A stretch of DNA of 64,000 nt from a virus, in IMG/VR virus record IMGVR_UViG_3300042446_001683. The stretch is one strand, 5' to 3'. The notes below the pieces were generated by a model, which worked only from the letters and a program-made list of their open reading frames with translations, was not told the origin of the DNA and ran no database searches. Shown here piece after piece: positions 4,553 through 31,588 of this stretch. The position numbers and the translations under genes were made by a program. The stretch's first letter is position 1. Every line of letters begins with the position of its first letter.

Positions 4553-4577
4553 CCGATATTTATATATAAAATTAAAC

Positions 4578-11015: not shown

Positions 11016-11039
11016 CCCATATTTATAATAAATTTTGTA

Positions 11040-14154: not shown

Positions 14155-14757
14155 ATGAACAAAGAATTTTTAAAAATGCAAAAAACGGCTGGTTTAATAA
14201 CTGAAAGCCAATATGCTACTCTAATAGTAGAATCTGAAGAGCAAGAAATAGATCAAGCATTATCATCAGGAGTTAACGCTTTACAAGATTTAAGTTCTTT
14301 AGATGAAATTGAAGAACAACCTCTTGAAGAATCAGTTGTAGGTTTAGTAATTAGTGGATTATTAGCCGCTCCAAAATTAATAGAATGGTTAGGAAAAGGT
14401 ATAAGTATTATAACTAGACCATTTGTTGGTAAAGATGAAAATACTGTAGCCAAAAATATTATTAAATTTGGCCATAAATGGGAAAAATTTTATATAAAAG
14501 CTATAATAGCTGCTATTAAATTTACTAAATTTGGTAAACAATTATGGATGTTACCTGATAATAAAATAGATGAACAAAAATTAGTATCACTAGCTAAAAT
14601 ATTATATGGTGTAATTCTAAGTATAGCAGCTGGTAACGCTTTAAAAACTGTATTAAGTAGTTCTCATCCTATCTTAACAGCTATTGAAAGTGCTTTAGGT
14701 GGGGTTAAAGCGATAGAAATAGCTCAAATAGCATCTAAAGTTAAAGGACAAATTTGA
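14155..14757 (+). CDS. Putative internal head protein with hydrophobic helices and N-terminal FLKMQKTAGLITE motif
   Basis: Motif shared with the scaffold C-terminus; hydrophobic segment follows PLEE. Confidence 0.6.
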   Translation: MNKEFLKMQKTAGLITESQYATLIVESEEQEIDQALSSGVNALQDLSSLDEIEEQPLEESVVGLVISGLLAAPKLIEWLGKGISIITRPFVGKDENTVAKNIIKFGHKWEKFYIKAIIAAIKFTKFGKQLWMLPDNKIDEQKLVSLAKILYGVILSIAAGNALKTVLSSSHPILTAIESALGGVKAIEIAQIASKVKGQI

Positions 14758-14792
14758 TAAAAACACACATATTTATAATAAAATAAAACAAA

Positions 14793-16244
14793 ATGGAAAT
14801 TAACAGACTACGTTCAATCATAAGAGAATCAATTAGCAACAATCTTAAAGAGATTGAAGATGTTGCAGAAAACGCAGCAATGGAAGCTAAATTAAATGCT
14901 TACACTGAAGCTATTGATAAAGTAAACAAAAAAATTGAAATGGCTGAAAGCCTTGAAGAAATGCAAGAATTAGTAGATCCTACTAAATTAAATGAACTTA
15001 AAAAACATTTAAAAACTCTTGAAAAATCTAAAGAAAAATTAGAAAAGGTTAAAGCTAAGAAAAACAAAGGTAAAGAAGTAGTAACTGACGAACCAGTTGA
15101 AGAAGCTGAAGTTGAAGAAGGAAGTGCAATGGATAGTATGGATAATGCTATAGTTCCTGAAATGGATTACACAATGGAGGAAGAAGAAGCAATAAATGAA
15201 TCATTCCTTAAAATGCAAAAATTAGCAGGTGTAATTACTGAAGCTCAATACAATCAAAAAAAAAGATTAATTGAGAATCAATTAGAAGAAATATCATTAT
15301 CTGGAGCTTTAAATAAAGTTAAAGATAAGATAGCAAGTTTACCTGCTTTTGATAAACTTATTAATTCTGTTGTGACTAAAATGTCTGAAAAAGACAAAGA
15401 AAACTTTAAAGCTAAATTTAATTTAGCTGAAGCTAAAGGTGCTCCTTCTTTAGAAGATATAATGACTAAAGTAGATGCTATCAACCTAGATAAAGATGCT
15501 AAAACTCCTGAAGATTTAAAAGAAGGAGCTGAAGAAACAGTAGACAAAATAGCATACGAAGTTGTAAGATTAGTTAAAAATTTAACTGGTCTAAACCTAT
15601 TAGCATTAGGTGGTCTTCCATTTGGATTTGTTATTAACTATTTAATAGATATGAGTCCATGGAGTTTCGGAGCATTCGTAGGCCCAGTTATTAGTTTAGT
15701 AGCATCATTAATAATCCATGGTATATCCAGAAAAATTTTAGGAATATCTCCAGATGATGAACTAATTGGAGAATCTGAAGACCAACAAGAAGCACCAACA
15801 CCAGAAAAAATAGCAAAAGATATTGCTAATAATATAGATCAATTAAAATCAAATCCTAAATTAAAAGCTATAGCTGATAAGATAGCTGCTGACCCAAAAG
15901 CAACAGAAGAATTAAATAAAATATTAGCTAAATTTAATATTTCTTTAAATGAAGGAGATATTGATGTTAATCCTCAAGATGTTTATAAAATAGCTTTAGC
16001 TTTTGCTAAAAAAGCAAAAACATTAGGTGAAGAAGAAGGTAATTATGGAGCATTATTTTTAGGTGGTTTATTTGGAGGAGGTGCTTTAGCTCGTTATATA
16101 GCTAGTCTTGGAGATATTATAACCCCAGAAATGAAAATGTTAGGATATTCTCCGTCTCATATGACAGCTGCTGTCCTTGGAGGTTTAGCAGCCGCTGCTT
16201 TATTAATGATAGGCCAGTATATATATGACAATTACAAAAAATAA
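14793..16244 (+). CDS. Putative internal head polyprotein with membrane-type segments and internal FLKMQKLAGVITE motif
   Basis: Leader MEINRLRSIIRES; many [IL]xE junctions; two Gly-rich hydrophobic hairpins. Confidence 0.6.
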   Translation: MEINRLRSIIRESISNNLKEIEDVAENAAMEAKLNAYTEAIDKVNKKIEMAESLEEMQELVDPTKLNELKKHLKTLEKSKEKLEKVKAKKNKGKEVVTDEPVEEAEVEEGSAMDSMDNAIVPEMDYTMEEEEAINESFLKMQKLAGVITEAQYNQKKRLIENQLEEISLSGALNKVKDKIASLPAFDKLINSVVTKMSEKDKENFKAKFNLAEAKGAPSLEDIMTKVDAINLDKDAKTPEDLKEGAEETVDKIAYEVVRLVKNLTGLNLLALGGLPFGFVINYLIDMSPWSFGAFVGPVISLVASLIIHGISRKILGISPDDELIGESEDQQEAPTPEKIAKDIANNIDQLKSNPKLKAIADKIAADPKATEELNKILAKFNISLNEGDIDVNPQDVYKIALAFAKKAKTLGEEEGNYGALFLGGLFGGGALARYIASLGDIITPEMKMLGYSPSHMTAAVLGGLAAAALLMIGQYIYDNYKK

Positions 16245-16254
16245 ATAACATATA

Positions 16255-16329
16255 GACAGATTCATAGCCTGTCGATTTAATAAAAATACTAAGGAGCTGT
16301 GGCCCACCCAAAAGGTGGGCCACCTTAGT
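16255..16329 (+). ncRNA. Candidate structured RNA (two hairpins with possible pseudoknot) or strong terminator
   Basis: GACAG/CTGTC stem; ACTAAG/CTTAGT plus a 10-bp GTGGCCCACC/GGTGGGCCAC stem; loop CATAGC complementary to GCTGTG. Confidence 0.4.
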
Positions 16330-16357
16330 TTGGCTTTTAAAATAAATTTATTATATT
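16329..16357 (+). promoter_or_regulatory. Class A promoter TTTGGC-N17-TATATT
   Basis: Recurrent motif just upstream of ATG 16366. Confidence 0.6.
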
Positions 16358-16365
16358 AATATTAT

Positions 16366-17646
16366 ATGAATAAGAAAATAGTAATTATAGGTGCGGGAGT
16401 AGCGGGTATAAACGCAGCTACTAAATTAGTCGATAACGGCTACCCAGGTGAATTAATCACCATTATAGACAAAGGAAATGATCCACATAATCGTTTACCT
16501 GAAGAGGTAATGACTGGTATGTTAGGCGCTGGTGGGTGGTCAGATGGTAAATTAACATACCATACTGCTATCGGAGGTGTACTATCAAAGTACTGCGGTG
16601 AAGAGAAAGCAATGGAATTAATGGATCAAGTTATTAGTAACTTTAGACGTTTCCATCCTAAACCAGAAGAAATATTTTGCTCTGACCCACAAGCAGAACC
16701 TGATTTTATTAAACCATATTTTGGATTACGTTTATTCCCAGTATGGCATATTGGTTCAAATTATCTACATGAAATTGCTAAAACATGGTATTCATATTTA
16801 ATTAACAAAGGTGTAAAATTTAAATGGAATACTGAAGTATCAGCCATTGATTTTAAAACTGAGTATATTGATATTAAGGATAGTTTAGAAGTAATATCAT
16901 ATGATGAATTAATATTTGCAGTAGGTAAATCAGGTATTGACTTTGGTAAAAAATTAGCAGACGAATATAACTTACCAACAGAACCAAAATCAGTACAAAT
17001 TGGAGTTCGTTTTGAAGCACCACAAAAATACTTCCAAAAATTAATTGATGTTAGTTATGATTTTAAACTATATCAAAAATTCAATAATGTATCATTACGT
17101 TCATTTTGTACTAACAATAACGCAGCTTATGTAGCGGTAGAAGAAACATATGGTGATATTACTTATAATGGTCATGCTAAAAAAGGTGAAGAATTTAGAA
17201 ATGATATGACTAACTTTGGTATATTAATGGAAATTAAAGGTATTGAAAATCCATTTGAATGGTCAAGAGAAGTAGTAAGTAAATTACAATTTAGAAATAT
17301 TGGGTTATATTATAGTCCATCTCGTACACCATCACAAACATCTGAAGGTGAAAGTATTAATACAGTTCAAGTTGGTAATCTAAACCAATTTAAAGAAGTA
17401 ATGGGTGAATATGCTGATTACATTATTAACTTTATTGACCAAATGAATAAAATATTTAAGTTTGGTAATGATTGGGGAATGTATATACCTGAAGTTAAGT
17501 ATTTAAGTCCTGAACCATTAGTAGATTATAAAAACTTAGCATTAACTGATTATCCTAATGTGCATTTTGTAGGAGATGCTTTATCTGCTCGTGGAATTAC
17601 AGTAAGTGGAGCGCAAGGAATATATGTAGCTGAGTCGCTCTTATAA
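16366..17646 (+). CDS. NAD(P)/FAD-dependent oxidoreductase
   Basis: GAGVAG Rossmann motif, GAGGWSDGKL, IGVRFE, RSFC, FVGD..GIT.S. Confidence 0.85.
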   Translation: MNKKIVIIGAGVAGINAATKLVDNGYPGELITIIDKGNDPHNRLPEEVMTGMLGAGGWSDGKLTYHTAIGGVLSKYCGEEKAMELMDQVISNFRRFHPKPEEIFCSDPQAEPDFIKPYFGLRLFPVWHIGSNYLHEIAKTWYSYLINKGVKFKWNTEVSAIDFKTEYIDIKDSLEVISYDELIFAVGKSGIDFGKKLADEYNLPTEPKSVQIGVRFEAPQKYFQKLIDVSYDFKLYQKFNNVSLRSFCTNNNAAYVAVEETYGDITYNGHAKKGEEFRNDMTNFGILMEIKGIENPFEWSREVVSKLQFRNIGLYYSPSRTPSQTSEGESINTVQVGNLNQFKEVMGEYADYIINFIDQMNKIFKFGNDWGMYIPEVKYLSPEPLVDYKNLALTDYPNVHFVGDALSARGITVSGAQGIYVAESLL

Positions 17647-17670
17647 AGACTATACATAACATTTGACATG

Positions 17671-17705
17671 AAGGGTTTGGCTTTGCCGGACCCTTTTGTT
17701 ATATT
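17671..17705 (+). promoter_or_regulatory. Terminator hairpin fused with class A promoter TTTGGC-N18-TATATT
   Basis: AAGGGTTTGGC-TTT-GCCGGACCCTT stem contains the TTTGGC box at 17676; TATATT at 17700. Confidence 0.65.
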
Positions 17706-17726
17706 TAGCTATAATTATAAATACTT

Positions 17727-18920
17727 ATGGCGAATTTACAAGAAGACCTATCAAGAATAGGCAAACAATTAATGTTTAGTGAACCATTCTACGGTATATT
17801 CATGTCAACTCTTAATAAAGTTGTAAGAAAGGATTTACCTACTGCTGGAGTTTCTAAAAATAACATTAATTATCAACTAGCTATCAATGAGGAATTTTGG
17901 AACTCATTAGATAATGACAAAAAGAAGATAGGTCTATTAAAACATGAGCTACTTCATATATGTTTTAACCACTTAGAAGATAGAGAGTGGTTTCCTAATC
18001 ATGAATTACATAATATAGCTGCGGATTTAGAAATTAATCAATATCTAACACCAGAGTATTATCCAACAGATGATATTATATTATTATCGTCATTTCCCGA
18101 ATTAAATCTACCTGAGAAAGCTGGTACTAAAGTGTATTATGGATTGTTACAACAAGCATTAGATAAAGGTACAAGTCCATCATTACAAGCATTAATGGAT
18201 AGTTTAACAGGAATGGATGGTGGTTTACACCCAACATGGAAAGAATTTGATGGTATGGGTGAAGCTGATGCCAAATTAGCTAAAGCGCAAATTGAACATC
18301 AAATTAAAGAAATTGTTAATTCACAAAATAATCAAGGTAGAGGATTCATACCTGATGAATTACAAAGTTGGATTGATAATATGTTTGAAGAAACAGAATC
18401 TTCATATGATTGGAAGTCATATTTTAGACGATTCTGTGGTACATCTTCAAAAACATATACTAAAAAAACAAGACGTAAACTAAATAAACGTTTCCAAGAA
18501 AACCCAGCATTGAAAATCAAAACTAAAAAGAAAATATTAGTAGGAGTTGACACATCAGGTTCAGTTGGTGAAAAAGATTTAATTGAGTTCTTTAATGAAA
18601 TTAATCACATGTATAAAACTGGTGTATCAATTACTGTAGCTGAAGGTGATGCTGATATTCATAATGTATATGAGTATAAAGGAGATGTGCCTGACAAAAT
18701 AACAGGTAGAGGTGGTACTGATATGAATCCATTTATTACATATTTTAATAAGCATAGGGAGTTTAACAGCTTAATCATATTAACTGATGGCTATATAGGC
18801 GAAAATGAAGTTAAGACATTTAAACCAATGATGATGGTTATATGTTCAAATGGTGATGATATAGAAACAGTAAAAGGAAATGGATGGGGCCACACAATCA
18901 AGATAAGTTTGGCTTCTTAA
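17727..18920 (+). CDS. HExxH metallopeptidase-like + VWA domain protein (DUF2201-like)
   Basis: LKHELLH, NIAADLEIN, VDTSGS MIDAS, GRGGTD, LTDG. Confidence 0.85.
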   Translation: MANLQEDLSRIGKQLMFSEPFYGIFMSTLNKVVRKDLPTAGVSKNNINYQLAINEEFWNSLDNDKKKIGLLKHELLHICFNHLEDREWFPNHELHNIAADLEINQYLTPEYYPTDDIILLSSFPELNLPEKAGTKVYYGLLQQALDKGTSPSLQALMDSLTGMDGGLHPTWKEFDGMGEADAKLAKAQIEHQIKEIVNSQNNQGRGFIPDELQSWIDNMFEETESSYDWKSYFRRFCGTSSKTYTKKTRRKLNKRFQENPALKIKTKKKILVGVDTSGSVGEKDLIEFFNEINHMYKTGVSITVAEGDADIHNVYEYKGDVPDKITGRGGTDMNPFITYFNKHREFNSLIILTDGYIGENEVKTFKPMMMVICSNGDDIETVKGNGWGHTIKISLAS

Positions 18921-18937
18921 AATACAAATGTTATATT
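18908..18937 (+). promoter_or_regulatory. Class A promoter TTTGGC-N18-TATATT
   Basis: Recurrent motif. Confidence 0.65.
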
Positions 18938-18958
18938 TAATTAAAATAAATAAAGGTT

Positions 18959-20152
18959 ATGGCAAAACAAAAAACAAAACACGCTGAAGTGTCTCTAAAC
19001 ATTAAAGAGGCAAAACAATTCTTAAAACACATCATAAATAACAATCGTTATTTACAATCGAATGGTAAGTTACCTGTAGCCGTTGAGGTAGTTGGTGACT
19101 CTGGTATTGGTAAAACATCAACAATTTTACAATTAGCCAAAGAAACAGATCTAAACTTTGTTAAGTTGAACTTAGCTCAAATTGAGGAGCTAGGTGACTT
19201 AGTAGGTTTTCCAATCCGCCAATTTGAAGTATGTAAAACTGATAATGACTGTTTATGGATTGACGAACATGCAGTAGAAGAGTATACTAAACAAGGTTAC
19301 AAATTTACAGGTCTAAATCGTATGAGTTACTGTCCACCTGAATGGATTAGTGGCAAAACTAATGGAGGTATCTTATTATTAGATGACTGGAACCGCGCTG
19401 ATGTTAGGTTTATTCAAGCTGTTATGGAGTTAATTGATAGACAACAGTATATTAGTTGGACATTACCTAAAGATTGGCATATTATATTAACAAGTAACCC
19501 GGATAATGGAGACTATTTAGTTAATAGTATTGATAGTGCTCAAAAAACACGATTCATCTCAGTTAATCTTAAATTTGATATTAATTGTTGGAGTGAGTGG
19601 GCTGAAGATGCTACAATAGATAGTAGATGTATTAACTTCTTACTTAAACATCCAGAATTGGTATCAACTAATACTAACTCAAGAAGTATTACAACATTCT
19701 TTAATTCAATCTCATCATTAAATTCATTTGATAGTGAGTTAGGTTTAATTCAAATGATTGGTGAGGGTAGTGTTGGGCCTGAGTTCACAACTATGTTCAC
19801 AATGTTTATTAATAATAAATTAGATAAAATCATCTCACCAGAAACTATTATGACTCATGAAAGTGAGGAGTATGTTTTAAATACTTTAAAAGGTATTATT
19901 GGTAAGGGTGATAAATATAGAGCAGATTTAGCATCAATTTTATCAACTCGTATTGTTAACTTTAGCTCATATTATGCTAAGAATAATAAAGTTGAAAAAC
20001 CATATATTGATCGTTTAGCGTTTTTAATGAATGAAGAGTTGTTTGCTATGGATTTAAAATATAAAATTGTAAAAACAACTTACAATAACAACCCATCAGC
20101 TTTTAAATCATTAATGTTAAATAAAACTTTAATTCAATTTTTAACTAAGTAA
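18959..20152 (+). CDS. MoxR-like AAA+ ATPase
   Basis: GDSGIGKT Walker A, LLLDDWNRA Walker B, LTSNP, DSAQKTRF; adjacent to the VWA gene. Confidence 0.85.
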   Translation: MAKQKTKHAEVSLNIKEAKQFLKHIINNNRYLQSNGKLPVAVEVVGDSGIGKTSTILQLAKETDLNFVKLNLAQIEELGDLVGFPIRQFEVCKTDNDCLWIDEHAVEEYTKQGYKFTGLNRMSYCPPEWISGKTNGGILLLDDWNRADVRFIQAVMELIDRQQYISWTLPKDWHIILTSNPDNGDYLVNSIDSAQKTRFISVNLKFDINCWSEWAEDATIDSRCINFLLKHPELVSTNTNSRSITTFFNSISSLNSFDSELGLIQMIGEGSVGPEFTTMFTMFINNKLDKIISPETIMTHESEEYVLNTLKGIIGKGDKYRADLASILSTRIVNFSSYYAKNNKVEKPYIDRLAFLMNEELFAMDLKYKIVKTTYNNNPSAFKSLMLNKTLIQFLTK

Positions 20153-20154
20153 TT

Positions 20155-21264
20155 ATGAAAAATCAAAATATAGGACATTTAACAACTGTTAATTCTGGTC
20201 ACCCTCACCGCATCGAAATATTTAATGTAGGTTACAATTTAATAGGAGGTATTATACCTGAAGATTATCAAACTAAAATTAAAAATTTCTTAAATGAAAT
20301 AAAAGATAATAAATTAACTGATGACAGTGCAGTATATATTACTCCATTATCTGAGTTACCTTCATATAAACTTAAAAATTATATTGAAGAAAATAAGTTA
20401 AATATAACTACTGCTCGTAAACTTGAGAAATTAGATACTCTAATTATTAATAAAGAATTTATTGAAAATCATTACCATAATATTACAGTATGGGATAGTC
20501 TTACAAGAACATATTTAACTAATCATATAACTGACTATTTAGTATTTCCAATAAATGTTTTAATAGAAGATCCTAAATTTAAAAAACATATCAATCCAAT
20601 GAAAAATAAATGGAATGATATAACTATAAAAGGAAAAAAACATATTACTCATTATTGTGTATCAATGAATGAATATAATAATATATGTTCTAAAATTCCT
20701 GCCTTCCAAACTATTAAAGATAAAGCTACAATACATAGAGGAATTAGACTTGAAGGATCACACGGTTCTAAAAAAGCATTTGATAGTTTAGAGTTTTATA
20801 TTAATCTATTAGATAATGTTAAAAAACATAATTTAAAAGTTGTATTTGATTCAAATGTAAATGAAGATATTAATAAAGGATTAGTTATTGATTTTGATAT
20901 ATTCCAAAATTTATATGGAATGTTAAAAAGTACTGATACTGGTAATTGGGAGGTAGCAAAAGAAATTATTGCTAACTGTGAGTTTGAAGCATCAAAATCT
21001 TATATTATAGCTTTATATAATATGTTTATGGATTTGCGTAAAACAAGTCCTAATAAAAATTATAATTTAGTTAAAAAAGTATTAGATACTAAAAAATTAG
21101 GCATAAGAATACAATATAGAGGATATGTTCCGGCATTTGAATCATTGTTAGCACATTTTAGTGATAAATGTCCTGAGTTGATCCCACAATTAATGCCTTG
21201 TTTAATTTATCGTATAAACGACTTAGCTAAAAAAGAAGTAATTAAAGAGATAACACTTGCCTAA
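20155..21264 (+). CDS. Hypothetical protein
   Basis: 369-aa ORF coupled to the AAA gene. Confidence 0.6.
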   Translation: MKNQNIGHLTTVNSGHPHRIEIFNVGYNLIGGIIPEDYQTKIKNFLNEIKDNKLTDDSAVYITPLSELPSYKLKNYIEENKLNITTARKLEKLDTLIINKEFIENHYHNITVWDSLTRTYLTNHITDYLVFPINVLIEDPKFKKHINPMKNKWNDITIKGKKHITHYCVSMNEYNNICSKIPAFQTIKDKATIHRGIRLEGSHGSKKAFDSLEFYINLLDNVKKHNLKVVFDSNVNEDINKGLVIDFDIFQNLYGMLKSTDTGNWEVAKEIIANCEFEASKSYIIALYNMFMDLRKTSPNKNYNLVKKVLDTKKLGIRIQYRGYVPAFESLLAHFSDKCPELIPQLMPCLIYRINDLAKKEVIKEITLA

Positions 21265-21286
21265 TATTTATACGTAAACAATATTA

Positions 21287-21769
21287 ATGGCTAAAGTAGT
21301 ACTTTTAAGTTGTACCAAATCAAAGACTAAACATGCAGCTCCAGCACAGGAGCTGTATTCTGCTTCTCCAATGTTCCAAAAAACATTAGAATATGGTAAA
21401 TCACTCAAACCAGATAAAATGTATATCTTATCTGCTAAACATCATTTAGTTCCTTTAACTAAGAAATTAGAACCTTACGATAAAACTCTTAAGGAAATGC
21501 CTAAAGATGAGAAAGAAAAATGGGGTGAAGAAACAATTAAACAGATGAAGTCAGCAGGTATTAATCCTGAAAAAGATCAATTTGTATTCTTAACAGGAAG
21601 CGAGTACATGAAACCATTAGCCAAATACATCCCAGATGGCAATACAGAAAAACCAATGGAAGGTAAACGTTTTGGAGAGCGTTTAAAGTGGTTAAACTCA
21701 CAAGTACAAAAATTAACTGAAGCATTTAAACGTTTAAAAAATCTTATATATGAAAGTCTCAAAAAATAA
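21287..21769 (+). CDS. DUF6884/YaaA-like protein
   Basis: LLSCTKSK..APAQELYS.S.MF..ILSAKH.L..YD.TL pattern. Confidence 0.7.
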   Translation: MAKVVLLSCTKSKTKHAAPAQELYSASPMFQKTLEYGKSLKPDKMYILSAKHHLVPLTKKLEPYDKTLKEMPKDEKEKWGEETIKQMKSAGINPEKDQFVFLTGSEYMKPLAKYIPDGNTEKPMEGKRFGERLKWLNSQVQKLTEAFKRLKNLIYESLKK

Positions 21770-21989
21770 ATTAAACGAATATATTCAATTATATTTAAAC
21801 GACTTAGAAGACTATGGCGACAGTCAAACTGATTTATTAATAGCTGAATCAACATTAAATACATTCAAGTTATTATTAGTTGAATCTAATCAAGATGTTC
21901 CAACTATATTACGTGAAGCTATAACAAAGTCAGAACATGAACAGCGTGAAGTGTTTGAAGATTTCTTAGATTATCTAGAAAATATATAA
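21750..21989 (+). CDS. Small acidic hypothetical protein
   Basis: 79-aa ORF. Confidence 0.5.
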   Translation: MKVSKNKLNEYIQLYLNDLEDYGDSQTDLLIAESTLNTFKLLLVESNQDVPTILREAITKSEHEQREVFEDFLDYLENI

Positions 21990-21995
21990 CACTTG

Positions 21996-22025
21996 TTTGG
22001 CTATTAGGGATAAAGATGTTATATT
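21996..22025 (+). promoter_or_regulatory. Class A promoter TTTGGC-N18-TATATT
   Basis: Recurrent motif. Confidence 0.65.
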
Positions 22026-22044
22026 TAATAAATAAATTAATAAC

Positions 22045-22299
22045 ATGAAAGAAGTAAAACCATTAGTTGTAGATGAAACATTAAAAACAAAAAAATTCAC
22101 ATCACCTGACGGCACAGTACGTCATATTAAAGATGGTAAGTTACATAACTGGGAAGGCCCAGCATTAATTACACCAGAAGGTAAAGAAGAATATTATATT
22201 AATGGTGTTCAACATACTAAGGACAGTCATAAAAAAGCTAGAAAAGATGGAGTTGGATTACCATGGTATAAATCAGGTGTAGCTAAACAAAGATTCTAA
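22045..22299 (+). CDS. Small MORN-variant-like repeat protein
   Basis: GKLHNWEGPALI..G.EEYYING. Confidence 0.6.
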   Translation: MKEVKPLVVDETLKTKKFTSPDGTVRHIKDGKLHNWEGPALITPEGKEEYYINGVQHTKDSHKKARKDGVGLPWYKSGVAKQRF

Positions 22300-22854
22300 A
22301 TGAAAATAGGTTTTATTCTTCCTGGACGAGAGTTTTCAGAAAAATTTATAAACAGTTGGACAAGTACATTAAAATCAATCCCTAAAGAATGGGATTGGTT
22401 TCTAGTTACTGGGTATGTTCCAAATGTATTCTATAATAGACAAGCATTACTTGATAGAGCTAAAATGTTAAGACCAACTCACTATATGTGGATTGATAGT
22501 GATCAAGTATTTAATTTTCAAATGCTTGAAAGACTAATAAATCATAACTTACCTATAGTCTCAGGGATATATAAGAAAACACCAGATATATTTGCTTGCT
22601 GTGGGCTAGATGGTCGAACATTAACTGTTAATGATATTGAAGGACAAACGGATTTAATTGAGGTTAAAGCAAATGGAATGGGTTTTATGTTAGTTAAACG
22701 TGAAGTACTTGATTATATAGTTGATCCATTTGAACCTATTGATCCTGATCAATGGGAAGATTTTACTTTTCAAGAAAAAGCTAGGCAAAGAGGATTTAAG
22801 TCATATATTGATCCTACAATTATAGTAGGACATGAAAAAAAGATAGTATTATGA
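22300..22854 (+). CDS. GT-A fold glycosyltransferase
   Basis: WIDSD DxD motif, IVSGIY, GMGFMLVKREV, ED..F, VGHEK. Confidence 0.8.
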   Translation: MKIGFILPGREFSEKFINSWTSTLKSIPKEWDWFLVTGYVPNVFYNRQALLDRAKMLRPTHYMWIDSDQVFNFQMLERLINHNLPIVSGIYKKTPDIFACCGLDGRTLTVNDIEGQTDLIEVKANGMGFMLVKREVLDYIVDPFEPIDPDQWEDFTFQEKARQRGFKSYIDPTIIVGHEKKIVL

Positions 22855-23381: not shown

Positions 23382-23406
23382 TATTTATACGCAAAAACTA
23401 AACACA

Positions 23407-23913
23407 ATGAAATTATCTGAATTAAAAAAACATATTGAAGAAAATATTGTTGAAATCTTAGGTGAAGTAGATGCTGATAGAACAAGAGGTACTGTTGTTG
23501 TAGCTAAAAATACACCTCCAACAGAACTTAAAAAGCTAACAGCACAAGGAGTTGATGTGGAATTAAAATCAATGGAAGAAGCTAAAGATGAAGATGAAGA
23601 AGTAGAAGATACTTATGGTAAAGAAGATGAAGATGATAAAAAAGACGCTAAAATAGCTAACGCTGAACCAACAAAAGCTGAACTTAAGAAATTAGATAAA
23701 GAGTTTAGTTCAACTAAATTAGCTAAATCATTATCACCTGCTGATAAAGAAAGATTAGACAAGCTAGAGTCAGGTATTAAGAAAAAATTAGCTAACCCAA
23801 CTAAAGAAAATATTGAAATTGTTAGACAACTTATCAAGAAGCCAGAAATTAAAAAGTTGTTTAAAGATGGAGGTAAAGATCTTAAAGCATTAATATCTGA
23901 CGTTATCAGATAA
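23407..23913 (+). CDS. Hypothetical protein with leader MKLSELKKHIEE
   Basis: ATATTTAT at 23381; acidic/basic low-complexity ORF upstream of the terminase. Confidence 0.55.
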   Translation: MKLSELKKHIEENIVEILGEVDADRTRGTVVVAKNTPPTELKKLTAQGVDVELKSMEEAKDEDEEVEDTYGKEDEDDKKDAKIANAEPTKAELKKLDKEFSSTKLAKSLSPADKERLDKLESGIKKKLANPTKENIEIVRQLIKKPEIKKLFKDGGKDLKALISDVIR

Positions 23914-23937
23914 TACCTCCCTTAATAAGGGTTACTT

Positions 23938-25509
23938 ATGAGTCAAGACATAAAACAAATAATTCGTGAAGAATACCTGAAGTGCGCCTCTAATCCGGCG
24001 CACTTTATGCGTAAATACTGCTATATTCAACACCCACAACGTGGTAGAGTATTATTTAACCTATACCCATTTCAAGATAAAGTACTTAACTTATGGAAAG
24101 ATAATCCATACGATATAATACTTAAATCAAGACAATTAGGTATATCTACTCTAGTAGCAGGTTACTCTTTATGGTTAATGTTATTCCATAAGGATAAAAA
24201 TATCTTATGTATAGCAACTAAACAAGAAACAGCTAAAAACATGGTGACGAAAGTTAAATTCATGTTTGAAAACTTACCTTCTTGGTTAAAAATAACAGCT
24301 GAGGAAAATAATAAATTAACATTACGACTAAGTAATGGCTCCCAGGTTAAAGCAGTATCAGCAGCTGGTGATGCAGGTCGATCTGAAGCAGTTTCTTTGC
24401 TGATTATAGATGAGGCCGCGTTTATTGATGGTATTGGTGAGATTTGGGCATCTGCTCAACAAACCTTAGCAACAGGTGGTGGAGCAATTGTGTTATCTAC
24501 CCCATATGGTACTGGTAATTGGTTCCATCAAACATGGGTTAAAGCAGAAGCAGGTGAAAACCAATTTTTACCTATTAAATTACCATGGTATGTTCATCCT
24601 GAGCGAGATGAGAATTGGAGGAAACGACAAGATGAATTATTAGGTGATCCTAGAATGGCGGCTCAAGAATGTGACTGTGATTTTAGTACATCTGGTGATG
24701 TAGTATTTTATCCTGAGTATATAGACTTTATTGCTCAAACTTATATTAAGGATCCCTTGGAGAGGCGCGGAGTCGATCATAACTTATGGATATGGGAACC
24801 AGCAGATTATAGTCGTAGTTATATAGTTGTAGCAGACGTTGCTCGAGGAGATGGAAAAGATTTCTCAGCATTTCATATTATAGATGTTGAAACAAATACT
24901 CAAGTAGGTGAATATAAAGGACAATTATCACCTAGAGAATTTGGTTATTTGTTAGTAGCAATAGCCACAGAGTATAATGAAGCACTATTAGTTGTTGAAA
25001 ATGCTAATATAGGATGGTCAACAATTGAAGCAGTTCAAGAAAGAGGATATAGAAATTTATACCATTCTCCAAAAACTGAAGCTACAAACGCTGATTCTTA
25101 TTTAGATAAGTATGATGATCCATCAAAAATGACACCTGGATTTACAATGTCTTTAAAAACAAGACCACTTGTAATTAGTAAATTTAGAGAGTATATTGGA
25201 GATAAAAGTGTTATCATACAATCTAAACGATTATTAGAAGAAATGAAAGTGTTTATTTGGAGAAACGGCAGACCAGAAGCACAATCAGGATACAATGATG
25301 ATTTAGTTATGAGTTTTGGAACAGCAATGTACATAAGAGACACAGCTCTTAAATTTAAAACACAAGGAATGGATTTAACTCGTGCAATGCTTAGTAACAT
25401 TACTGTAGTTAAAACAAACCAACAAGGTATTTACGGAACAACATTCAACAACAATCCATACAAAATGGATTTTGGACATGGATCTGAAGACATTAGTTGG
25501 TTATTATAA
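23938..25509 (+). CDS. terL: Terminase large subunit (T4 gp17-like)
   Basis: KSRQLGIST Walker A, IIDEAAF Walker B, STPYG, ADVARG nuclease, NDDLVMS. Confidence 0.95.
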   Translation: MSQDIKQIIREEYLKCASNPAHFMRKYCYIQHPQRGRVLFNLYPFQDKVLNLWKDNPYDIILKSRQLGISTLVAGYSLWLMLFHKDKNILCIATKQETAKNMVTKVKFMFENLPSWLKITAEENNKLTLRLSNGSQVKAVSAAGDAGRSEAVSLLIIDEAAFIDGIGEIWASAQQTLATGGGAIVLSTPYGTGNWFHQTWVKAEAGENQFLPIKLPWYVHPERDENWRKRQDELLGDPRMAAQECDCDFSTSGDVVFYPEYIDFIAQTYIKDPLERRGVDHNLWIWEPADYSRSYIVVADVARGDGKDFSAFHIIDVETNTQVGEYKGQLSPREFGYLLVAIATEYNEALLVVENANIGWSTIEAVQERGYRNLYHSPKTEATNADSYLDKYDDPSKMTPGFTMSLKTRPLVISKFREYIGDKSVIIQSKRLLEEMKVFIWRNGRPEAQSGYNDDLVMSFGTAMYIRDTALKFKTQGMDLTRAMLSNITVVKTNQQGIYGTTFNNNPYKMDFGHGSEDISWLL

Positions 25510-25535
25510 TATTTATATACATAATTTAATATAAA

Positions 25536-27419
25536 ATGGCAGATACAAGTGTATTTACACGACTAAGACGATTATTCTCTACTGATGTTATCATCAGAAA
25601 TGCTGGGGGTAACGAACTTAAAGTAATGGATGTTAACAGTATTCAAGCTACTGGAGAATATCAAACTAACTCACTAATAGACCGTTATAGTCGTATTTAC
25701 TCTAACAATAGTACATCACTTTATGGTGCTCAATTAAATCTTAATTGGAAATATCTACGTACTCAAATCTATTCTGATTATGATGCAATGGATACTGACG
25801 CTATTATCGCGTCTGCTTTGGATATAATCGCGGACGAATGTACCCTTAAGAATGATATGGGTGAAGTACTTCAAATTAAGAGTAGCGACGAAGATATACA
25901 AAAAATACTATATAATTTATTCTATGATGTATTAAACATTGAATTTAATTTATGGTCTTGGATTAGACAAATGTGTAAGTATGGTGATTTTTTCTTAAAA
26001 TTAGAAATAGCTGAAAAATTTGGTGTATATAATGTTATACCATATACCGCTTATCATATTGCTCGTGAAGAAAATTACGACCCTAAAAATCCAGCTGAAG
26101 TAAGATTTGCATTTAGCGCTGATGGATTCTCAGGCGGAACAGGATTTTATGGAGTAACAGGACAAGGTAATTATAGTTCAAATAAACAGGACAATAAGAT
26201 ATACTTTGACAACTATGAAATGGCTCACTTCAGATTAATTACTGATGTAAACTATTTACCTTATGGTCGTTCTTATTTAGAACCAGCTCGTAAGTTATTT
26301 AAACAATACATTTTGATGGAAGATGCAATGTTAATCCATCGTATTTGTCGCGCCCCAGAAAAACGTATTTTTTATATTAATGTTGGTTCTATTCCTCCAA
26401 ATGAAGTAGAAAACTTCATGCAGAAGACTATCAACACAATGAAGAAAACTCCATTAGTTGATCCTCAAACAGGTGAATATAATTTAAAGTATAACCAACA
26501 AAATATGTTGGAAGACTTTTACATACCAGTTAGAGGTAATGATTCATCTACTAAGATTGAACCTACTAAAGGTATGGATTATAATGGTATTGAAGACGTA
26601 GCGTACCTAAGAGACAAGTTATTTGCTGCTTTAAAAGTACCTAAAGCATTTATGGGTTATGAAAAAGACCTAACCGGTAAAGCAACATTAGCAGCAGAAG
26701 ATATTCGTTTCGCTCGTACAATTGATCGCATTCAACGTATTATATTATCTGAGTTAAATAAAATAGCATTAGTTCACTTATATACTCAAGGGTATAGAAA
26801 CGAAGGTTTAACAAACTTTGAATTAGATTTAACTACTCCTTCTATCATTTATGATCAAGAAAGAATAGCATTAATGAAAGAAAAAGTAGATTTAGCTCGT
26901 AATATTATTGAAACTAAGATATTACCTACTGATTGGATTTATGATAATGTATTCCACTTAAGTCAAGATCAATTTGATGAATATCGTGATTTAATTGCTG
27001 AGGATCAAAAACGTATCTTTAGAATGAAACAAATTGAAAACGAAGGCAATGACCCATTAGAATCAGGTAAATCATATGGTACACCTCATGATTTAGCCGC
27101 GTTATATGGTTCAGGTCGTTACAATAGTGGGGTACCTGATGGATATGGTGATGATCTTACTTTAGGTCGCCCTAAAGAAAAAGCATCTACTATTGGTACT
27201 CAAGACAATTACTTAGGAGTTGATAGATTAGGTAGTAAAGGTATGAAGAAAGGTGATGATACTGGTGAAGATAAATCATTAAGAAATAATTTTAAAGGTG
27301 GATCACCATTAGCATTAGAAAATCTCCAAAAGAAAACACTACTTGAATCAATGGATAAAAAACTTGTATTTAAAAAAGACGATTCTTCGTTATTAGATGA
27401 ATCTCAAATACGAGAATAA
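25536..27419 (+). CDS. gp20: Portal protein (T4 gp20-like)
   Basis: MEDAMLIHRICRAPEKRIFYI, EDFYIP.RG, LFAALKVP, EDIRFARTI. Confidence 0.95.
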   Translation: MADTSVFTRLRRLFSTDVIIRNAGGNELKVMDVNSIQATGEYQTNSLIDRYSRIYSNNSTSLYGAQLNLNWKYLRTQIYSDYDAMDTDAIIASALDIIADECTLKNDMGEVLQIKSSDEDIQKILYNLFYDVLNIEFNLWSWIRQMCKYGDFFLKLEIAEKFGVYNVIPYTAYHIAREENYDPKNPAEVRFAFSADGFSGGTGFYGVTGQGNYSSNKQDNKIYFDNYEMAHFRLITDVNYLPYGRSYLEPARKLFKQYILMEDAMLIHRICRAPEKRIFYINVGSIPPNEVENFMQKTINTMKKTPLVDPQTGEYNLKYNQQNMLEDFYIPVRGNDSSTKIEPTKGMDYNGIEDVAYLRDKLFAALKVPKAFMGYEKDLTGKATLAAEDIRFARTIDRIQRIILSELNKIALVHLYTQGYRNEGLTNFELDLTTPSIIYDQERIALMKEKVDLARNIIETKILPTDWIYDNVFHLSQDQFDEYRDLIAEDQKRIFRMKQIENEGNDPLESGKSYGTPHDLAALYGSGRYNSGVPDGYGDDLTLGRPKEKASTIGTQDNYLGVDRLGSKGMKKGDDTGEDKSLRNNFKGGSPLALENLQKKTLLESMDKKLVFKKDDSSLLDESQIRE

Positions 27420-27456
27420 CAACTTCATATATATTTATAGATAAATTATTGCTAAA

Positions 27457-28311
27457 GTGAATATAAAACACTCGAAGTACAAAAATACTGGAATCCTTTT
27501 TGAATTGTTAGTAAGACAAATCACAGCTGATACCTTATCTGGCAAGGAATCACCAGCAACAACAATTCTTAAGAAATACTTTACTAAAACTGAATTAGGT
27601 AAAGAATACAAGTTATACGAAAATTTCTTTAAGTATACTAACATTAGTGAAGCTAAAGCCAATATGGTTTTAAATACGCTTATTGAAAGTTCAAAACACT
27701 TAAATCGCTCAACTCTTAAGAGACAAAAGTATAATCTTATTAAGGAGATTAAAAATCATTATAATTTAGAGGATTTCTTTAAAATGAAATTACCTAATTA
27801 TAAAGCTCAAGCTTCATTATTTACTTTATTAGAAGTATATAATAGTGAAAACTTATCTAATCCAACTCAAATTATTGAGAATAAGACAGCACTTTTAGAA
27901 TACTTAACACAATCTACTATAGATAAAAAAGAAGTTAAAAACAGTATCTTAGAAGAATTTAAACATCAAGATAAAGATATTCGTATATTAACATATCGAG
28001 TATTACTTGAAAAGTTTAATGATAAGTATGCTGATTTAAATGAAAATCAAAAGAATACTTTAAAAGAATTTATTAACAGTATTGATAGTACTTCAAAATT
28101 AAAAGAATTCTACAATACTAAAATAAATGAAATTAAAAGTACATTAGGTACTTTAAATAAAAAAATTACTGATAAAGCTATTCAAATTAAAATAAATGAA
28201 GTTATAAACATTCTACCTAGTTTAACTAAGAATGAAAAAGTTAATGATGATCATTTAATTAATCTCTTACAATACTATGCGTTAGTAGAAGAGTTAGAAT
28301 CAGCAAAATGA
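27457..28311 (+). CDS. Head-module hypothetical protein (GTG start)
   Basis: IKHSKYKNTGILFELL N-terminus; lies between portal and protease. Confidence 0.6.
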   Translation: MNIKHSKYKNTGILFELLVRQITADTLSGKESPATTILKKYFTKTELGKEYKLYENFFKYTNISEAKANMVLNTLIESSKHLNRSTLKRQKYNLIKEIKNHYNLEDFFKMKLPNYKAQASLFTLLEVYNSENLSNPTQIIENKTALLEYLTQSTIDKKEVKNSILEEFKHQDKDIRILTYRVLLEKFNDKYADLNENQKNTLKEFINSIDSTSKLKEFYNTKINEIKSTLGTLNKKITDKAIQIKINEVINILPSLTKNEKVNDDHLINLLQYYALVEELESAK

Positions 28312-28778
28312 GTAAACGAGATAAAATAAAAGATTTAGTCGTTAAACGCTTAAAAGAAGAAAGCGCTACAGGTACTGGAGCGTCTTTCACAGCTGGTGAA
28401 GGAATAAATTACGCCACACCAGTAGCAGGTAAAGCTAAAAATTACTATTATAAATTAGGCTTTAAACCTGTTAAAACTACAAAACCTAAAAGTTTTGATA
28501 TAAAAAAATTATGGGAAGAAGAAACTCCTGAATTTGATGTTGAATCATTTATAGTTTCATTACCAACAGAAGACGAAAAACTAAAAGAATATATAGCAGG
28601 ACGTTTAGGTGACTTTAACCTACTATCAGGAAAATTAAAAGAACTTATAACATTAATTAGAGACGCTAAAAAAGAAACAATAGCATCATATAAACAAAAT
28701 CCTCAATATAGAGCAGTATATGGTACTGATTTAGCAGTTTCGTTAGTAGACAATTTGATAAAATTATTTAAAAAATAA
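28308..28778 (+). CDS. Putative prohead core/internal protein
   Basis: Leader ..VKRLKEE; GEG.NYATP motif. Confidence 0.55.
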   Translation: MSKRDKIKDLVVKRLKEESATGTGASFTAGEGINYATPVAGKAKNYYYKLGFKPVKTTKPKSFDIKKLWEEETPEFDVESFIVSLPTEDEKLKEYIAGRLGDFNLLSGKLKELITLIRDAKKETIASYKQNPQYRAVYGTDLAVSLVDNLIKLFKK

Positions 28779-28780
28779 AC

Positions 28781-29716
28781 ATGGAACAAACACTTCAATC
28801 ACAATATAACCTTATTAAAGAAGGTAAAGGTAACAAAGCAGTATTTTTAAAATCTGCTTATCGTTTATTCCCAGACATGTTATCACCTGTTAACACATTC
28901 GAGGATACTGTTAAAATTCTTAAAAACAGAAGCATTATCAGTGAAAATGTAGGTGGATTAGTTACAACTGGTAAAAAACAAGATTGGCATGCTATTTTTA
29001 ATGAGAACATGACTGCTCTTAAAGAAGAAAAAGAAGCTAAAGCTGAAGAAAAAGAAACTACTAAAGAAGTTACAGACATGGCTACTCGTGGATATGATTA
29101 TAAAGACGAGAAAAACTATGATAACATATTTGGTCAAGAATTCTTAAAAGGATACTACACTGAAATGAAAGATCCTAAAAACTCTGATAAAAATGTTGAA
29201 GAATTAAAAGCAATTGTAGCTAAAAACTTAGCTAAAGATATTAATTTTTATGTTAAAGATGGTCAATTTGGAATTAAAGGAGTAGGATATACAACTGAAG
29301 CACCTGGGTTAGGTACACCTAAGGAACCTAAAGGTAAATTTAAATCATCAGGATATGGTGACTTAAAAGAATCAGTATTACGTTCTCAAATTCAACTTCT
29401 AATTAAAGAAGTATTAAATGAACTCCCTCCTTTAGAAGCAGGTGAGATGGGAGTATATGAAGGTGAACCAGTATTTATTATAGCTGTGTCTATGCATGCT
29501 AAAACAAATAAAGACGAACCTCAACCATTTTCATACACTATTGAAAAAAATGGTAAAATATACAGAGAAGTTCCTATTAGTGCTGTCACACCAGCATCAT
29601 TAGCTGAAGCTGAAGATAAAAAAGAAGATAAAGAAGAAGCTAAAAAGAAAAAAGAAGACCTTAAAAAGTTAGATGCAGAGTGGAAGAAAAAATTAAAAAC
29701 TGGTGATATAGACTAA
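28781..29716 (+). CDS. Putative prohead core/internal protein
   Basis: Multiple [IL]xE junctions; VAKNLAKD.NFY domain. Confidence 0.55.
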   Translation: MEQTLQSQYNLIKEGKGNKAVFLKSAYRLFPDMLSPVNTFEDTVKILKNRSIISENVGGLVTTGKKQDWHAIFNENMTALKEEKEAKAEEKETTKEVTDMATRGYDYKDEKNYDNIFGQEFLKGYYTEMKDPKNSDKNVEELKAIVAKNLAKDINFYVKDGQFGIKGVGYTTEAPGLGTPKEPKGKFKSSGYGDLKESVLRSQIQLLIKEVLNELPPLEAGEMGVYEGEPVFIIAVSMHAKTNKDEPQPFSYTIEKNGKIYREVPISAVTPASLAEAEDKKEDKEEAKKKKEDLKKLDAEWKKKLKTGDID

Positions 29717-29717
29717 T

Positions 29718-30326
29718 ATGAAACAAGTATTAATAGAAACCCAATTTTTTACTGCTAAACCTTTAAAATTAGTTGAAGGTACTGTACCAACAAGTAATCC
29801 ACTTGTTGAAGGTATCTTAGCTACTTGTGAGGTTAAAAATGGTAACGGTCGTTACTATTCAAGAGAATTGTGGGAACGTGAGATGGATAAATATATGGAA
29901 AATGTTAATGCTAATAGAGCATTAGGTGAATTAGACCACCCAGACTCATCTATTATTAACTTAAAAAATGTATCTCATAATATCAAGAAAATTTGGTGGG
30001 ACGGAGATAATGTAATGGGTGCTATTGAACTATTACCTACACCATCAGGTAATATCTTAAGAGCATTATTTGAAAACAAAATACCAGTAGGTGTATCATC
30101 ACGTGGTATGGGTTCATTAAAACAAATGGGTGATTTAATGGAAGTACAAGATGATTTTGAACTATTATGTTGGGATTTTGTATCTACACCTTCTAACCCA
30201 GGATCATACATGAAAGAAAAAGGTATGATGAATGAATCTAAAAATATCCAACATAACAAATATATTAAAGCAAATTCTATTATCACTGAAATACTTTGTG
30301 CTAATGGAACATGCCCAATATTTTAA
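29718..30326 (+). CDS. gp21: Prohead protease (T4 gp21-like)
   Basis: NGNGRYY, ALGELDHP, VSH, GVSSRGMGS, WDFVSTPS. Confidence 0.95.
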   Translation: MKQVLIETQFFTAKPLKLVEGTVPTSNPLVEGILATCEVKNGNGRYYSRELWEREMDKYMENVNANRALGELDHPDSSIINLKNVSHNIKKIWWDGDNVMGAIELLPTPSGNILRALFENKIPVGVSSRGMGSLKQMGDLMEVQDDFELLCWDFVSTPSNPGSYMKEKGMMNESKNIQHNKYIKANSIITEILCANGTCPIF

Positions 30327-30354
30327 CCCCTCCTAGAATAGTATTTTAGGACTG

Positions 30355-30385
30355 ATGTCTCTCGAAAGAGAGACATTTCTTTTTT
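30355..30385 (+). terminator. Intrinsic terminator
   Basis: ATGTCTCTC-GAAA-GAGAGACAT followed by a T-tract. Confidence 0.8.
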
Positions 30386-30526
30386 ATAAAAGGTGACTTT
30401 ACATAAATCCATATATATGTATGCTCAAATATGCTACCACAATCTACTATGTAGCATCTATTATTAAACAATCTATTACGTTTCTTAATAAACGTATTTC
30501 CAAAACAATTTAATTGAGGACAAAAA

Positions 30527-31588
30527 ATGAACAGAGAAATGCTCAAAGAAGCAATCGCTGAGGCTAAGACCATTAAGGAAACTGCTATCGCGAATGCAAA
30601 AGCTGCTCTTGAAGAAGCATTCACTCCACAACTTACAGCTATGTTTGCTGAAAGATTAAACGAGGAAGATGCTGAAAAAGAGTTAGAAGAAAACTACAGT
30701 GTGGAAGAAGAAGGATTAGAGGAAACTTTTAATCTAGATGAAATCCTAGCTGAGTTAGAAATGACTGACGAAGCTGATGAAACAGTTTCTGAAGATGACA
30801 TGGGAATAGATGAAGATCTAATGCTCGAAGAAATGTCAGATGAAGAAATTGAAGAGTTAGTAATGAAAGTTATTGATGACATGATCCAAACTGGTAAGCT
30901 TATGCCTGGAGAAGGTGAAGAAGAAGAAGGTGAAGAAGACTTAGAGGACGTTGAAGATTTAGACGGTGAAGAAGTTGAAATCGAAGACGAAGAAATTGAA
31001 CTTGATGAACTTTTAAACGAACTTCTTGATGAAGAAAAAGTATCTGAGACATCATTTGCAGATCCTCAAACTTTACAATTAGTAGCCCAAGCCGCAGATT
31101 TTTTAAACATCAGTAAGGACGCTGTAATGGCAATAGTAGCAGGTTTGCCTGCGACAGTAGCAGCAGCTGGATTCTTAAGAGGTTTATTAAGAGGCAAAAA
31201 GGAAGCTACTAAAGAAGAAGTTGAAAAAACAGCTGACACTAAAGAAATGGAAGAAACTATCGCTGAGTTAAGAAATGAACTAAACGAAGTTAATCTATTA
31301 AATGCTAAGTTACTTTACACTAACAAAATCTTTAAAGCTAAGAATCTTACCGAATCAGAAAAAATAAAGGTTTTAAACACGTTTGACAAAGCAGAAACTG
31401 TAAAAGAAGTTAAATTAGTATTCGAAACATTGACTGAATCTTTCAAAGCAGTAGCTAAGAAAGCACCAATTAAAGAATCACTAGGATCAGCTTCTAGAAG
31501 TATCGCTCCAGCTCAAACAAAACAACCAATTATTGAAGTAAACGATGCATTTGCTCGTATGCAAAGATTAGCTGGTATTAAAAAATAA
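30527..31588 (+). CDS. Prohead scaffold/core protein (T4 gp22-like position)
   Basis: Highly acidic coiled coil between protease and capsid genes; NLLNAKLLYTNK; C-terminal RMQRLAGI. Confidence 0.8.
   Translation: MNREMLKEAIAEAKTIKETAIANAKAALEEAFTPQLTAMFAERLNEEDAEKELEENYSVEEEGLEETFNLDEILAELEMTDEADETVSEDDMGIDEDLMLEEMSDEEIEELVMKVIDDMIQTGKLMPGEGEEEEGEEDLEDVEDLDGEEVEIEDEEIELDELLNELLDEEKVSETSFADPQTLQLVAQAADFLNISKDAVMAIVAGLPATVAAAGFLRGLLRGKKEATKEEVEKTADTKEMEETIAELRNELNEVNLLNAKLLYTNKIFKAKNLTESEKIKVLNTFDKAETVKEVKLVFETLTESFKAVAKKAPIKESLGSASRSIAPAQTKQPIIEVNDAFARMQRLAGIKK

Follow-up and report, generated by a model that had tools for sequence, protein, structure and literature searches.

Copies of a scaffold C-terminal peptide on unrelated proteins of a T4-like phage: a candidate removable prohead-loading tag

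Three copies of one peptide and the genes that carry them

The IMG/VR virus record IMGVR_UViG_3300042446_001683 is a 64-kb stretch of DNA with 32% G+C, representing a portion of a large phage; the whole of this stretch was analysed and is called the window here. It encodes a candidate scaffolding protein of which the C-terminal tail carries the motif F-x-[KR]-M-Q-[KR]-x-A-G-[ILV], and the same peptide recurs in two other proteins, where it is directly followed by a site of the type recognized by prohead proteases. On the identities of its capsid protein and the Pfam matches of its head proteins, the window phage is a distant T4-like myophage. The major capsid protein, of the gp23 family (31620..33317, + strand; Pfam Gp23, E 1.9e-72), shares 55% identity with its counterpart in the cultured Flavobacterium phage vB_FspM_immuto (immuto hereafter), 46% with that in Microcystis phage Mel-JY01, 45% with that in LR756508, an uncultured phage of 484 kb, and 34% with that in Rhodothermus phage RM378. 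Upstream on the same strand lie a prohead protease of the T4 gp21 family (29718..30326; Pfam Peptidase_S77, E 8.8e-29) and a portal protein of the T4 gp20 family (25536..27419; Pfam Portal_T4, E 3.6e-69). Proteases of the gp21 type cleave C-terminal to Glu (PMC5694885), and the window protease is presumed to be responsible for cleavage behind the Glu of [LI]xE sites.

Between protease and capsid genes, at the position of gene 22, an open reading frame (ORF; 30527..31588, + strand) encodes a protein of 353 residues, 94 of which are Asp or Glu. It contains 21 [LI]xE sites, a density of 0.057 as compared to an expected 0.031 (1.8-fold enriched), and is predicted by AlphaFold2 (AF2) to be helical with disordered acidic linkers. 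A preliminary description of the window had called this protein a scaffold. The label agrees with the gene order protease-scaffold-capsid, the composition and the cut-site density, but it draws no support from similarity to T-even gp22, since the BLASTP comparison was not significant (E 0.28). No Pfam or PHROGs family was matched either, and the protein is treated here as a scaffold candidate on its gene position, composition and cut-site density. The sequences of T-even gp22, gp67 and gp68 do not contain the motif, and gp22 does not have such an ending. The scaffold candidate also has a hydrophobic Ala/Gly-rich segment at residues 198–221 (31118-31189; Kyte-Doolittle 2.05 over 19 residues), a feature not usually seen in scaffolds that may bear on assembly at a membrane.

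The C-terminal peptide of the scaffold candidate comprises the 16 residues V338-K353 (nt 31538-31585, + strand), with the motif as the last 12 residues, and the protein ends FARMQRLAGIKK-stop. The peptide is preceded by a cut site I-I-E (nt 31529-31537, + strand), located six residues ahead of the F of the motif. The first non-scaffold copy is in an ORF of 200 codons (14155..14757, + strand; carrier 1) that starts M-N-K-E-FLKMQKTAGLITE, so that the tag occupies residues 1–17 (nt 14155-14205) and ends in I-T-E. The second copy is internal to an ORF of 483 codons (14793..16244, + strand; carrier 2), where nt 15192-15242 encode I-N-E-S-FLKMQKLAGVITE. Thus, I-T-E stands immediately behind both non-scaffold copies, and the internal copy has I-N-E just ahead of it. 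These three copies and the flanking sites of the internal one had been described before, and translation and a six-frame scan confirmed them: the strict motif has exactly three matches in the six-frame translation of the window, all inside the three ORFs, and looser patterns gave no additional matches. The corresponding back-translated DNA pattern, which has three matches, was found on average 0.00 times in 100 dinucleotide-preserving shuffles, which excludes that the motif occurs at background frequency. The two carriers can indeed be called unrelated proteins, as BLASTP aligns only the tag and some 25 residues behind it.

Behind its tag, carrier 1 has an acidic disordered stretch with more [LI]xE sites, up to about residue 58, followed by a conserved body that is entirely helical and includes two hydrophobic segments. 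In the AF2 model, residues 29–59 have a predicted local distance difference test (pLDDT) score below 50 and residues 59–197 form a helical domain; no fold match to the model was found in the PDB (best Foldseek E 0.5). Carrier 2 is composed of an acidic, coiled-coil-like N-terminal module (residues 1–137), the tag, and a C-terminal part that varies and has hydrophobic segments rich in Gly and Ala. Among the 120 homologues of carrier 2 that were listed, the acidic module and the tag are near-invariant, and the downstream part varies from 109 to 381 residues; the C-terminal hydrophobic domain is also found alone, behind an amphipathic leader (P0257, P0269). The gene is split in one relative (G001), in which a 171-residue acidic protein ends just past the tag and the next ORF begins with a new copy of it, and in some contigs the acidic module and tag form the C-terminus of a larger protein. 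Neither carrier has a Pfam or PHROGs match; the ESM Atlas gives only viral hypothetical proteins below 0.9, and together with the fold search it supports no function for either protein. Since hydrophobic Gly/Ala-rich segments are present in both, the window carriers might act on membranes after ejection.

Distribution of the peptide in related phages

The tail of the scaffold is well conserved. In all 120 of the best 120 matches among at least 8,000 scaffold homologues, the protein ends in the motif, preceded by P-I-I-E. The tail is also kept in 44 IMG/VR loci that were retrieved with the scaffold and in 74 further loci that were retrieved with the capsid protein (57–79% identity); variants in the latter set retain R-[MWF]-[QK]-x-L-A-G-[IL], with the C-terminus one to a few residues further on. 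Named phages fit in the same series, with scaffold ends ...R-W-Q-K-L-A-G-I-I-K in immuto, ...R-M-K-K-L-A-G-I-V-K in Mel-JY01, ...R-M-Q-K-L-A-D-I-S in LR756508 and ...R-I-K-R-L-A-G-L in RM378, so that a tail at the scaffold position is present in every relative examined, out to the Rhodothermus phage. Scans of the whole records of Mel-JY01 and RM378 revealed no copies outside the scaffold, and that of LR756508 at most one doubtful internal copy. From this we conclude that the scaffold tail predates its use elsewhere and that, judged from these sequences, the scaffold copy is probably the ancestral one, which fits the earlier suggestion that cargo proteins mimic the scaffold. In some relatives the scaffold and capsid genes are in frame. 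One record (G005, IMGVR_UViG_3300034061_003277; loci L181 and L186) has, besides the scaffold, another protein with the motif at its end; this one is at least 385 residues long and ends ...F-T-R-M-Q-K-L-A-G-V-I-K.

Non-scaffold copies were collected by scanning IMG/VR with the pattern M-Q-K-x-A-G-[LIV]-I-T-E, which retrieved at least 116 stretches with at least 132 carriers. In most of these the motif starts 7–13 residues past the start Met; a minority has it at an internal position, behind ...[LM]-N-E-S as in carrier 2, or near the C-terminus. The 116 mature parts of at least 35 residues fall into 59 BLAST clusters, and 60 representatives gave four weak single matches to Pfam and none to PHROGs. 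A profile of 31 columns built from 116 tags was then searched against a database of 1.84 billion clusters at 50% identity and matched 1,569 cluster representatives at E<=1e-3, of which 140 at E<=1e-10. Among the best 150 matches, 143 of the 154 copies are N-terminal. The consensus of the tag is x-N-x-E-F-L-x-M-Q-K-L-A-G-x-I-T-E. Five complete or near-complete relatives (140–163 kb) have two to six copies each, every one of them on the coding strand, and the reversed pattern has no match in the same five genomes; three copies in a 64-kb window are therefore typical. The cultured phage immuto has a single carrier, immuto35A_187. The pattern search across the window and related genomes, which had been recommended in the preliminary description, thus revealed a conserved scaffold tail and a portable tag on many unrelated proteins.

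The mature parts of the carriers are small, with a median length of 116 residues. The idea that the tag is a membrane leader was rejected, since a hydrophobic segment occurs in 7/59 and 14/132 of the carriers as compared to 6/59 of the window ORFs; the proportion of about 11% equals the background level.

Some carriers have a peculiar architecture. Thirteen of them end right behind the I-T-E of the tag with a second conserved tail, E-E-Y-K-x-x-L-W-Y-x-x-Y-stop (loci L058, L062, L090, L128, L129, L135 and L140, and the C-termini of proteins of about 349 residues in L067, L087 and L161), and some of these proteins, of 57–60 residues, consist of tag and tail and nothing else. At the other extreme there are large proteins of some 480–1,000 residues that start with the tag (L167 in G001, L178 in G005, L147, P0289, P0290 and P0345); these have 15–20 residues between the tag and the next [LI]xE, and in three of them a further, canonical copy is present close to the C-terminus.

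Selection, cut sites and exchange of leaders

The 60-nt region encoding the tag is present in 121 distinct nucleotide versions, in which the codons for Leu, Ala, Gly, Ile and Thr vary freely. Because synonymous codons are interchanged in this way, selection appears to act on the peptide and not on the DNA. Positions that were not part of the search pattern are kept as well, such as the F at position -3 (105/121) and the S/N, Q/E and Y following the Glu. The [LI]-x-E rule for cutting by T4 gp21 reportedly goes back to Black, Showe and Steven in 1994. Out of 148 distinct motif contexts, 120 continue at once with [LIVM]xE, and the others are 23 scaffold C-termini and 5 variants. The first of these numbers is inflated by the presence of I-T-E in several of the queries, the unbiased subsets being smaller. 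Copies that were retrieved without an I-T-E query are nearly all followed by I-T-E, the exceptions being three large proteins and one I-N-E variant. A second [LI]xE occurs within 15 residues in 110/146 cases. Where residues are present upstream of the tag, [LI]xE usually stands just before the F, and with sites on both sides the tag takes the form of an excisable 13–17-mer, as in the scaffold.

The bodies of the tagged proteins show the opposite trend to the scaffold. They contain 132 [LI]xE sites where 182 are expected from shuffled sequences (ratio 0.72; Wilcoxon p 7.7e-6; n=118), whereas the other window ORFs have an observed to expected ratio of 1.14, which is not significant (p 0.18). Such depletion is expected if tagged proteins must survive a protease that destroys the scaffold.

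The leader can also be exchanged. In other phages, the body of carrier 1, of about 140 residues, sits behind several different leaders, each of which ends in [LI]xE. These include the scaffold-tail tag and variants thereof, such as K-R-L-Q-Q-L-A-G-I-I-N-E, a quite unlike leader M-D-T-F-D-Y-K-K-Y-L-A-N-N-P-L-L-T-E, found on P0139-P0159 and absent from the window, and amphipathic leaders of the type M-K-R-S-E-L-V-G-L-V-R-E-L-M-A-E. Address labels would be expected to be exchangeable in this way on a single body.

Amphipathic leaders are also common within the window. Many unrelated window ORFs open with a leader of the type [LI]xx[LI][LI]xE, for example M-I-K-L-K-E-L-L-E-E, as seen at the N-termini of the ORFs at 548, 3026, 5170, 8930, 9576, 10031, 14793 and 23407. 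The N-termini of the scaffold candidate (30527) and of the capsid protein (31620) resemble it, and carrier 2 has both an amphipathic leader and the internal scaffold-tail tag.

The carriers are preceded by what looks like a late promoter of the window phage. The sequence ATATTTATA, often in the form ATATTTATAATAAA, is found 18–38 nt before the starts of the genes for portal, sheath, tube and about 12 other proteins on the + strand. One such site (11019..11029, + strand) lies some 20 nt before ORF 11040, another (14769..14779, + strand) 23 nt before carrier 2, and further sites on the + strand are at 4557, 5152, 21265, 23382, 25510, 27432, 33376, 34096, 36977, 39225, 39794, 51533, 52156 and 52739. 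ORF 11040-14153, a protein of 1,037 residues with a Pro/Thr/Ala-rich linker and no family match, lies directly upstream of carrier 1, and since its stop codon abuts the start of carrier 1 the two are probably in one operon. In related loci, ATATTTATA stands at equal distance ahead of 41–47 of 113 N-terminal carriers. It is the reverse complement of the T4 sequence TATAAATA; this T4 late promoter itself is present upstream of only 7/113 carriers and was rejected as the shared motif.

Docking model, precedents and alternatives

In AF2 predictions made with 32 homologues, the scaffold tail consists of a helix of 11 residues (338–348) and five non-helical residues, set apart from the rest of the protein by a disordered stretch (309–336). 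The tag of carrier 1, modelled with 27 homologues, similarly has a helix (residues 3–11) followed by a five-residue break at 12–16 (A-G-L-I-T), and hydrophobic moments are 0.39–0.65. This predicted layout is the same as that of the scaffold of phage 80alpha and of the CpmB protein of SaPI1, in both of which the 16 C-terminal residues form an 11-residue amphipathic helix and a 5-residue hook. Through this element the two proteins bind the N-arm of the capsid protein, where they contend for a single site (Dearborn et al. 2017, PMC5644958). There too, a second protein copies the last 16 or so residues of the scaffold. Moreover, the 80alpha scaffold ends ...ARQKRIIKN, and some relatives of the window phage end ...ARMQKLAGIIKN (A-R-M-Q-K-L-A-G-I-I-K-N) or ...LAGIIK, a likeness that is suggestive in a stretch too short to establish homology. 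A PDB sequence search gave no match. The differences are also clear: a head of the 80alpha type belongs to a siphovirus, in which the protease is a different one, CpmB is a size-redirecting scaffold of a satellite and not cargo, and the 80alpha motif is always C-terminal and is not excised as a tag, with binding that is proven there and only inferred here.

The second close precedent is the capsid-targeting sequence (CTS) of phage T4, which is found on IPII and IPIII, as well as on the propeptides of IPI, Alt and gp24, and is removed by gp21 (Mullaney & Black 1996, reviewed in PMC5694885, PMC3012670, PMC9958956). Like the tag in the window, it is a short, conserved leader of 10–20 residues on unrelated, diverse and fast-evolving small proteins, with a Glu cut site for a gp21-family protease at its end, and the window phage has head genes of the T4 type. 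Unlike the CTS, the tag does not resemble M-K-T-Y-Q-E-F-I-A-E, it copies the C-terminal tail of the scaffold, it also occurs at internal and C-terminal positions, it is present on more than 1,500 protein clusters instead of a handful, and at least two further classes of leader exist beside it in the same lineage. For the T4 CTS, packaging of GFP and of a nuclease has been demonstrated, whereas such a role of the present tag is predicted.

Propeptides that are removed after Glu by a related prohead protease also exist on head proteins of the giant phages phiKZ and SPN3US; these are N-terminal as well, but they are mostly longer (80–130 residues) and end in A/S-x-E sites, and paralogues with identical N-termini suggest a role in targeting (PMC5694885). 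The comparison with encapsulin cargo-loading peptides, which was made in the preliminary description, holds as a functional analogy in that a short peptide on diverse cargo docks inside an HK97-fold shell. It does not go further, as the encapsulin peptides are C-terminal, are not removed, and act without scaffold or protease, whereas the tag is mostly N-terminal (143/154) with a protease site behind it, in a phage that has both scaffold and protease. The T4 CTS and the helix-and-hook of 80alpha and CpmB are closer precedents. We know of no link between the propeptides of the giant phages and a scaffold terminus.

Taken together, these observations suggest the following model. The original copy of the peptide would be the last 16 residues of the scaffold, an amphipathic helix of about 11 residues and a hook, by which the scaffold docks in the assembling head, most likely, by analogy to 80alpha, on the inner face or the N-arm of the capsid protein, which is the candidate docking partner for both the scaffold tail and the tags. 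Phages of this clade would have placed copies of the peptide at the N-terminus, or at a junction between modules, of many unrelated late proteins, with I-T-E directly behind it. A tagged protein could then co-assemble into the prohead via the docking site of the scaffold itself, after which the gp21-type protease would cut behind the Glu and at a second site 8–15 residues further on, freeing the mature protein in the head and releasing the tag. The earlier proposal, that cargo mimics a coat-binding helix of the scaffold and is later released by the protease, is strengthened in so far as the scaffold tail turns out to be a conserved and portable module, with protease cut sites, leader swapping and cut-site avoidance in the bodies; that tagged proteins dock, are cut and become packaged, and which partner the peptide has, is what we infer from it. 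That the scaffold-tail copies serve as a prohead-loading tag that is removed by the protease, whatever the partner, is in our view probable. For the complete statement, with a tag that copies the docking tail of the scaffold and the coat as its partner, the chances are about even.

Several points weigh against this model. The T4 CTS is described as addressing proteins to the scaffolding core and not to the coat (PMC5694885, PMC3012670). In the one contig informative on covariation of tail and tag (G006), the scaffold tail has drifted to R-M-R-E-L-A-F-G... while the cargo tag is canonical, which implies that scaffold tail and cargo tag are not strictly co-constrained. The helix-and-hook shape comes from single-chain predictions with a pLDDT of about 70, and the query bias mentioned above makes the cut-site context less impressive than the full count. 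A search of the literature yielded no virion proteomics or reporter result for any carrier, including immuto35A_187. Finally, the mature carriers are mostly acidic, with a median isoelectric point of 4.6, whereas the internal proteins of T4 are basic; the acidic proteins could be degradable components of the core instead of delivered cargo. Changes between M and W/F in the scaffold tail, about 10 on the tree, provide only six supported independent pairs, too few for a scan of capsid-protein columns that change along with the tail.

The most serious alternative keeps the clip-off loading tag but replaces the coat by the scaffolding core, the tails joining each other or another core protein and the tagged proteins entering the core through that contact, as is said of the internal proteins of T4. 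It draws on the same descriptions of the T4 CTS as directing proteins into the core, and on the presence of the tag at or near the C-terminus, as in the scaffold, of small acidic core-like proteins and of the acidic module of carrier 2. The lack of covariation in G006 is also easier to understand with a loose helix-helix contact. On the other hand, scaffold C-termini that have been structurally resolved bind coat, as in 80alpha, and the predicted helix-plus-hook shape matches that case. Within the loading-tag reading we thus have a preference, but not a strong one, for the coat, because of the 80alpha precedent and the predicted shape, with the T4 CTS descriptions in favour of the core; as an explanation of the whole, the core version is rather unlikely but deserves to be taken seriously. 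It can also be imagined that the prohead protease docks on the peptide, which would recruit the enzyme to the scaffold and secure efficient cleavage at the nearby Glu sites but would not itself direct proteins to the head. In favour of this, the motif always has a cut site next to it, in many cases on either side, and the residues S/N-Q/E-Y-K behind the cut are conserved too. Yet the site is downstream of the motif in the cargos and upstream in the scaffold, which is odd for a single exosite, homologous bodies have leaders that differ widely and have only the [LI]xE end in common, and the scarcity of cut sites in the bodies itself implies that these are exposed to the protease and hence present in the head, so that this possibility seems improbable.

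Slightly more improbable still is a leader that has nothing to do with the capsid, serving instead in host-factor binding, control of translation or stability, membrane targeting, or as a recombination linker, its likeness to the scaffold being fortuitous or a relic of a gene-fragment duplication. The hydrophobic segments of both window carriers would fit such a role, and so would the shuffling of genes via conserved 5' cassettes in the hyperplastic regions of T4-type phages. However, hydrophobic segments are no more frequent in carriers than elsewhere, the free use of synonymous codons indicates that DNA is not what is conserved, the motif is found at the extreme C-terminus of the scaffold across very distant phages, and the cut-site context and depletion point to the head protease. 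Chance occurrence of three matches in an AT-rich genome, to which we would give practically no credence, is already refuted by the shuffling result and by the maintenance of the motif in thousands of homologues.

Both targeting by a CTS, as in T4, and mimicry of a scaffold tail, as in CpmB, are known; for the scaffold-tail variant of the tag, a search with the motif strings found no paper or preprint containing it in the collection covered. According to a recent review of the T4 head (Rao and colleagues, 2023), the mechanisms of sorting into the core 'remain mysterious', and that core's structure is unsolved (PMC9958956). A leader that visibly copies the docking peptide of the scaffold provides a concrete and testable model, in which cargo enters via the binding sites of the scaffold, and a cultured relative is available in immuto, which grows on Flavobacterium sp. 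LMO8. It is conceivable, though on balance doubtful, that the capsid-targeting leaders found in T4-type phages generally copy the termini of the scaffold, and that internal proteins occupy scaffold docking sites on the coat lattice; in this lineage the present tag would then come from the C-terminal tail, and the N-terminal helix of the scaffold may have given rise to the amphipathic [LI]xx[LI][LI]xE leaders. If this were true, it would explain the localisation of such proteins in the core, and the 1,500 or more tagged families would represent a large and mostly unknown repertoire of injected proteins.

The tag defines more than 1,500 clusters, at 50% identity, of small, mostly acidic and unannotated phage proteins. 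If these proteins are packaged and injected, they would be candidates for early anti-defence or take-over factors in abundant aquatic phages, and the tag of 17 residues may offer a packaging handle for the engineering of such phages.

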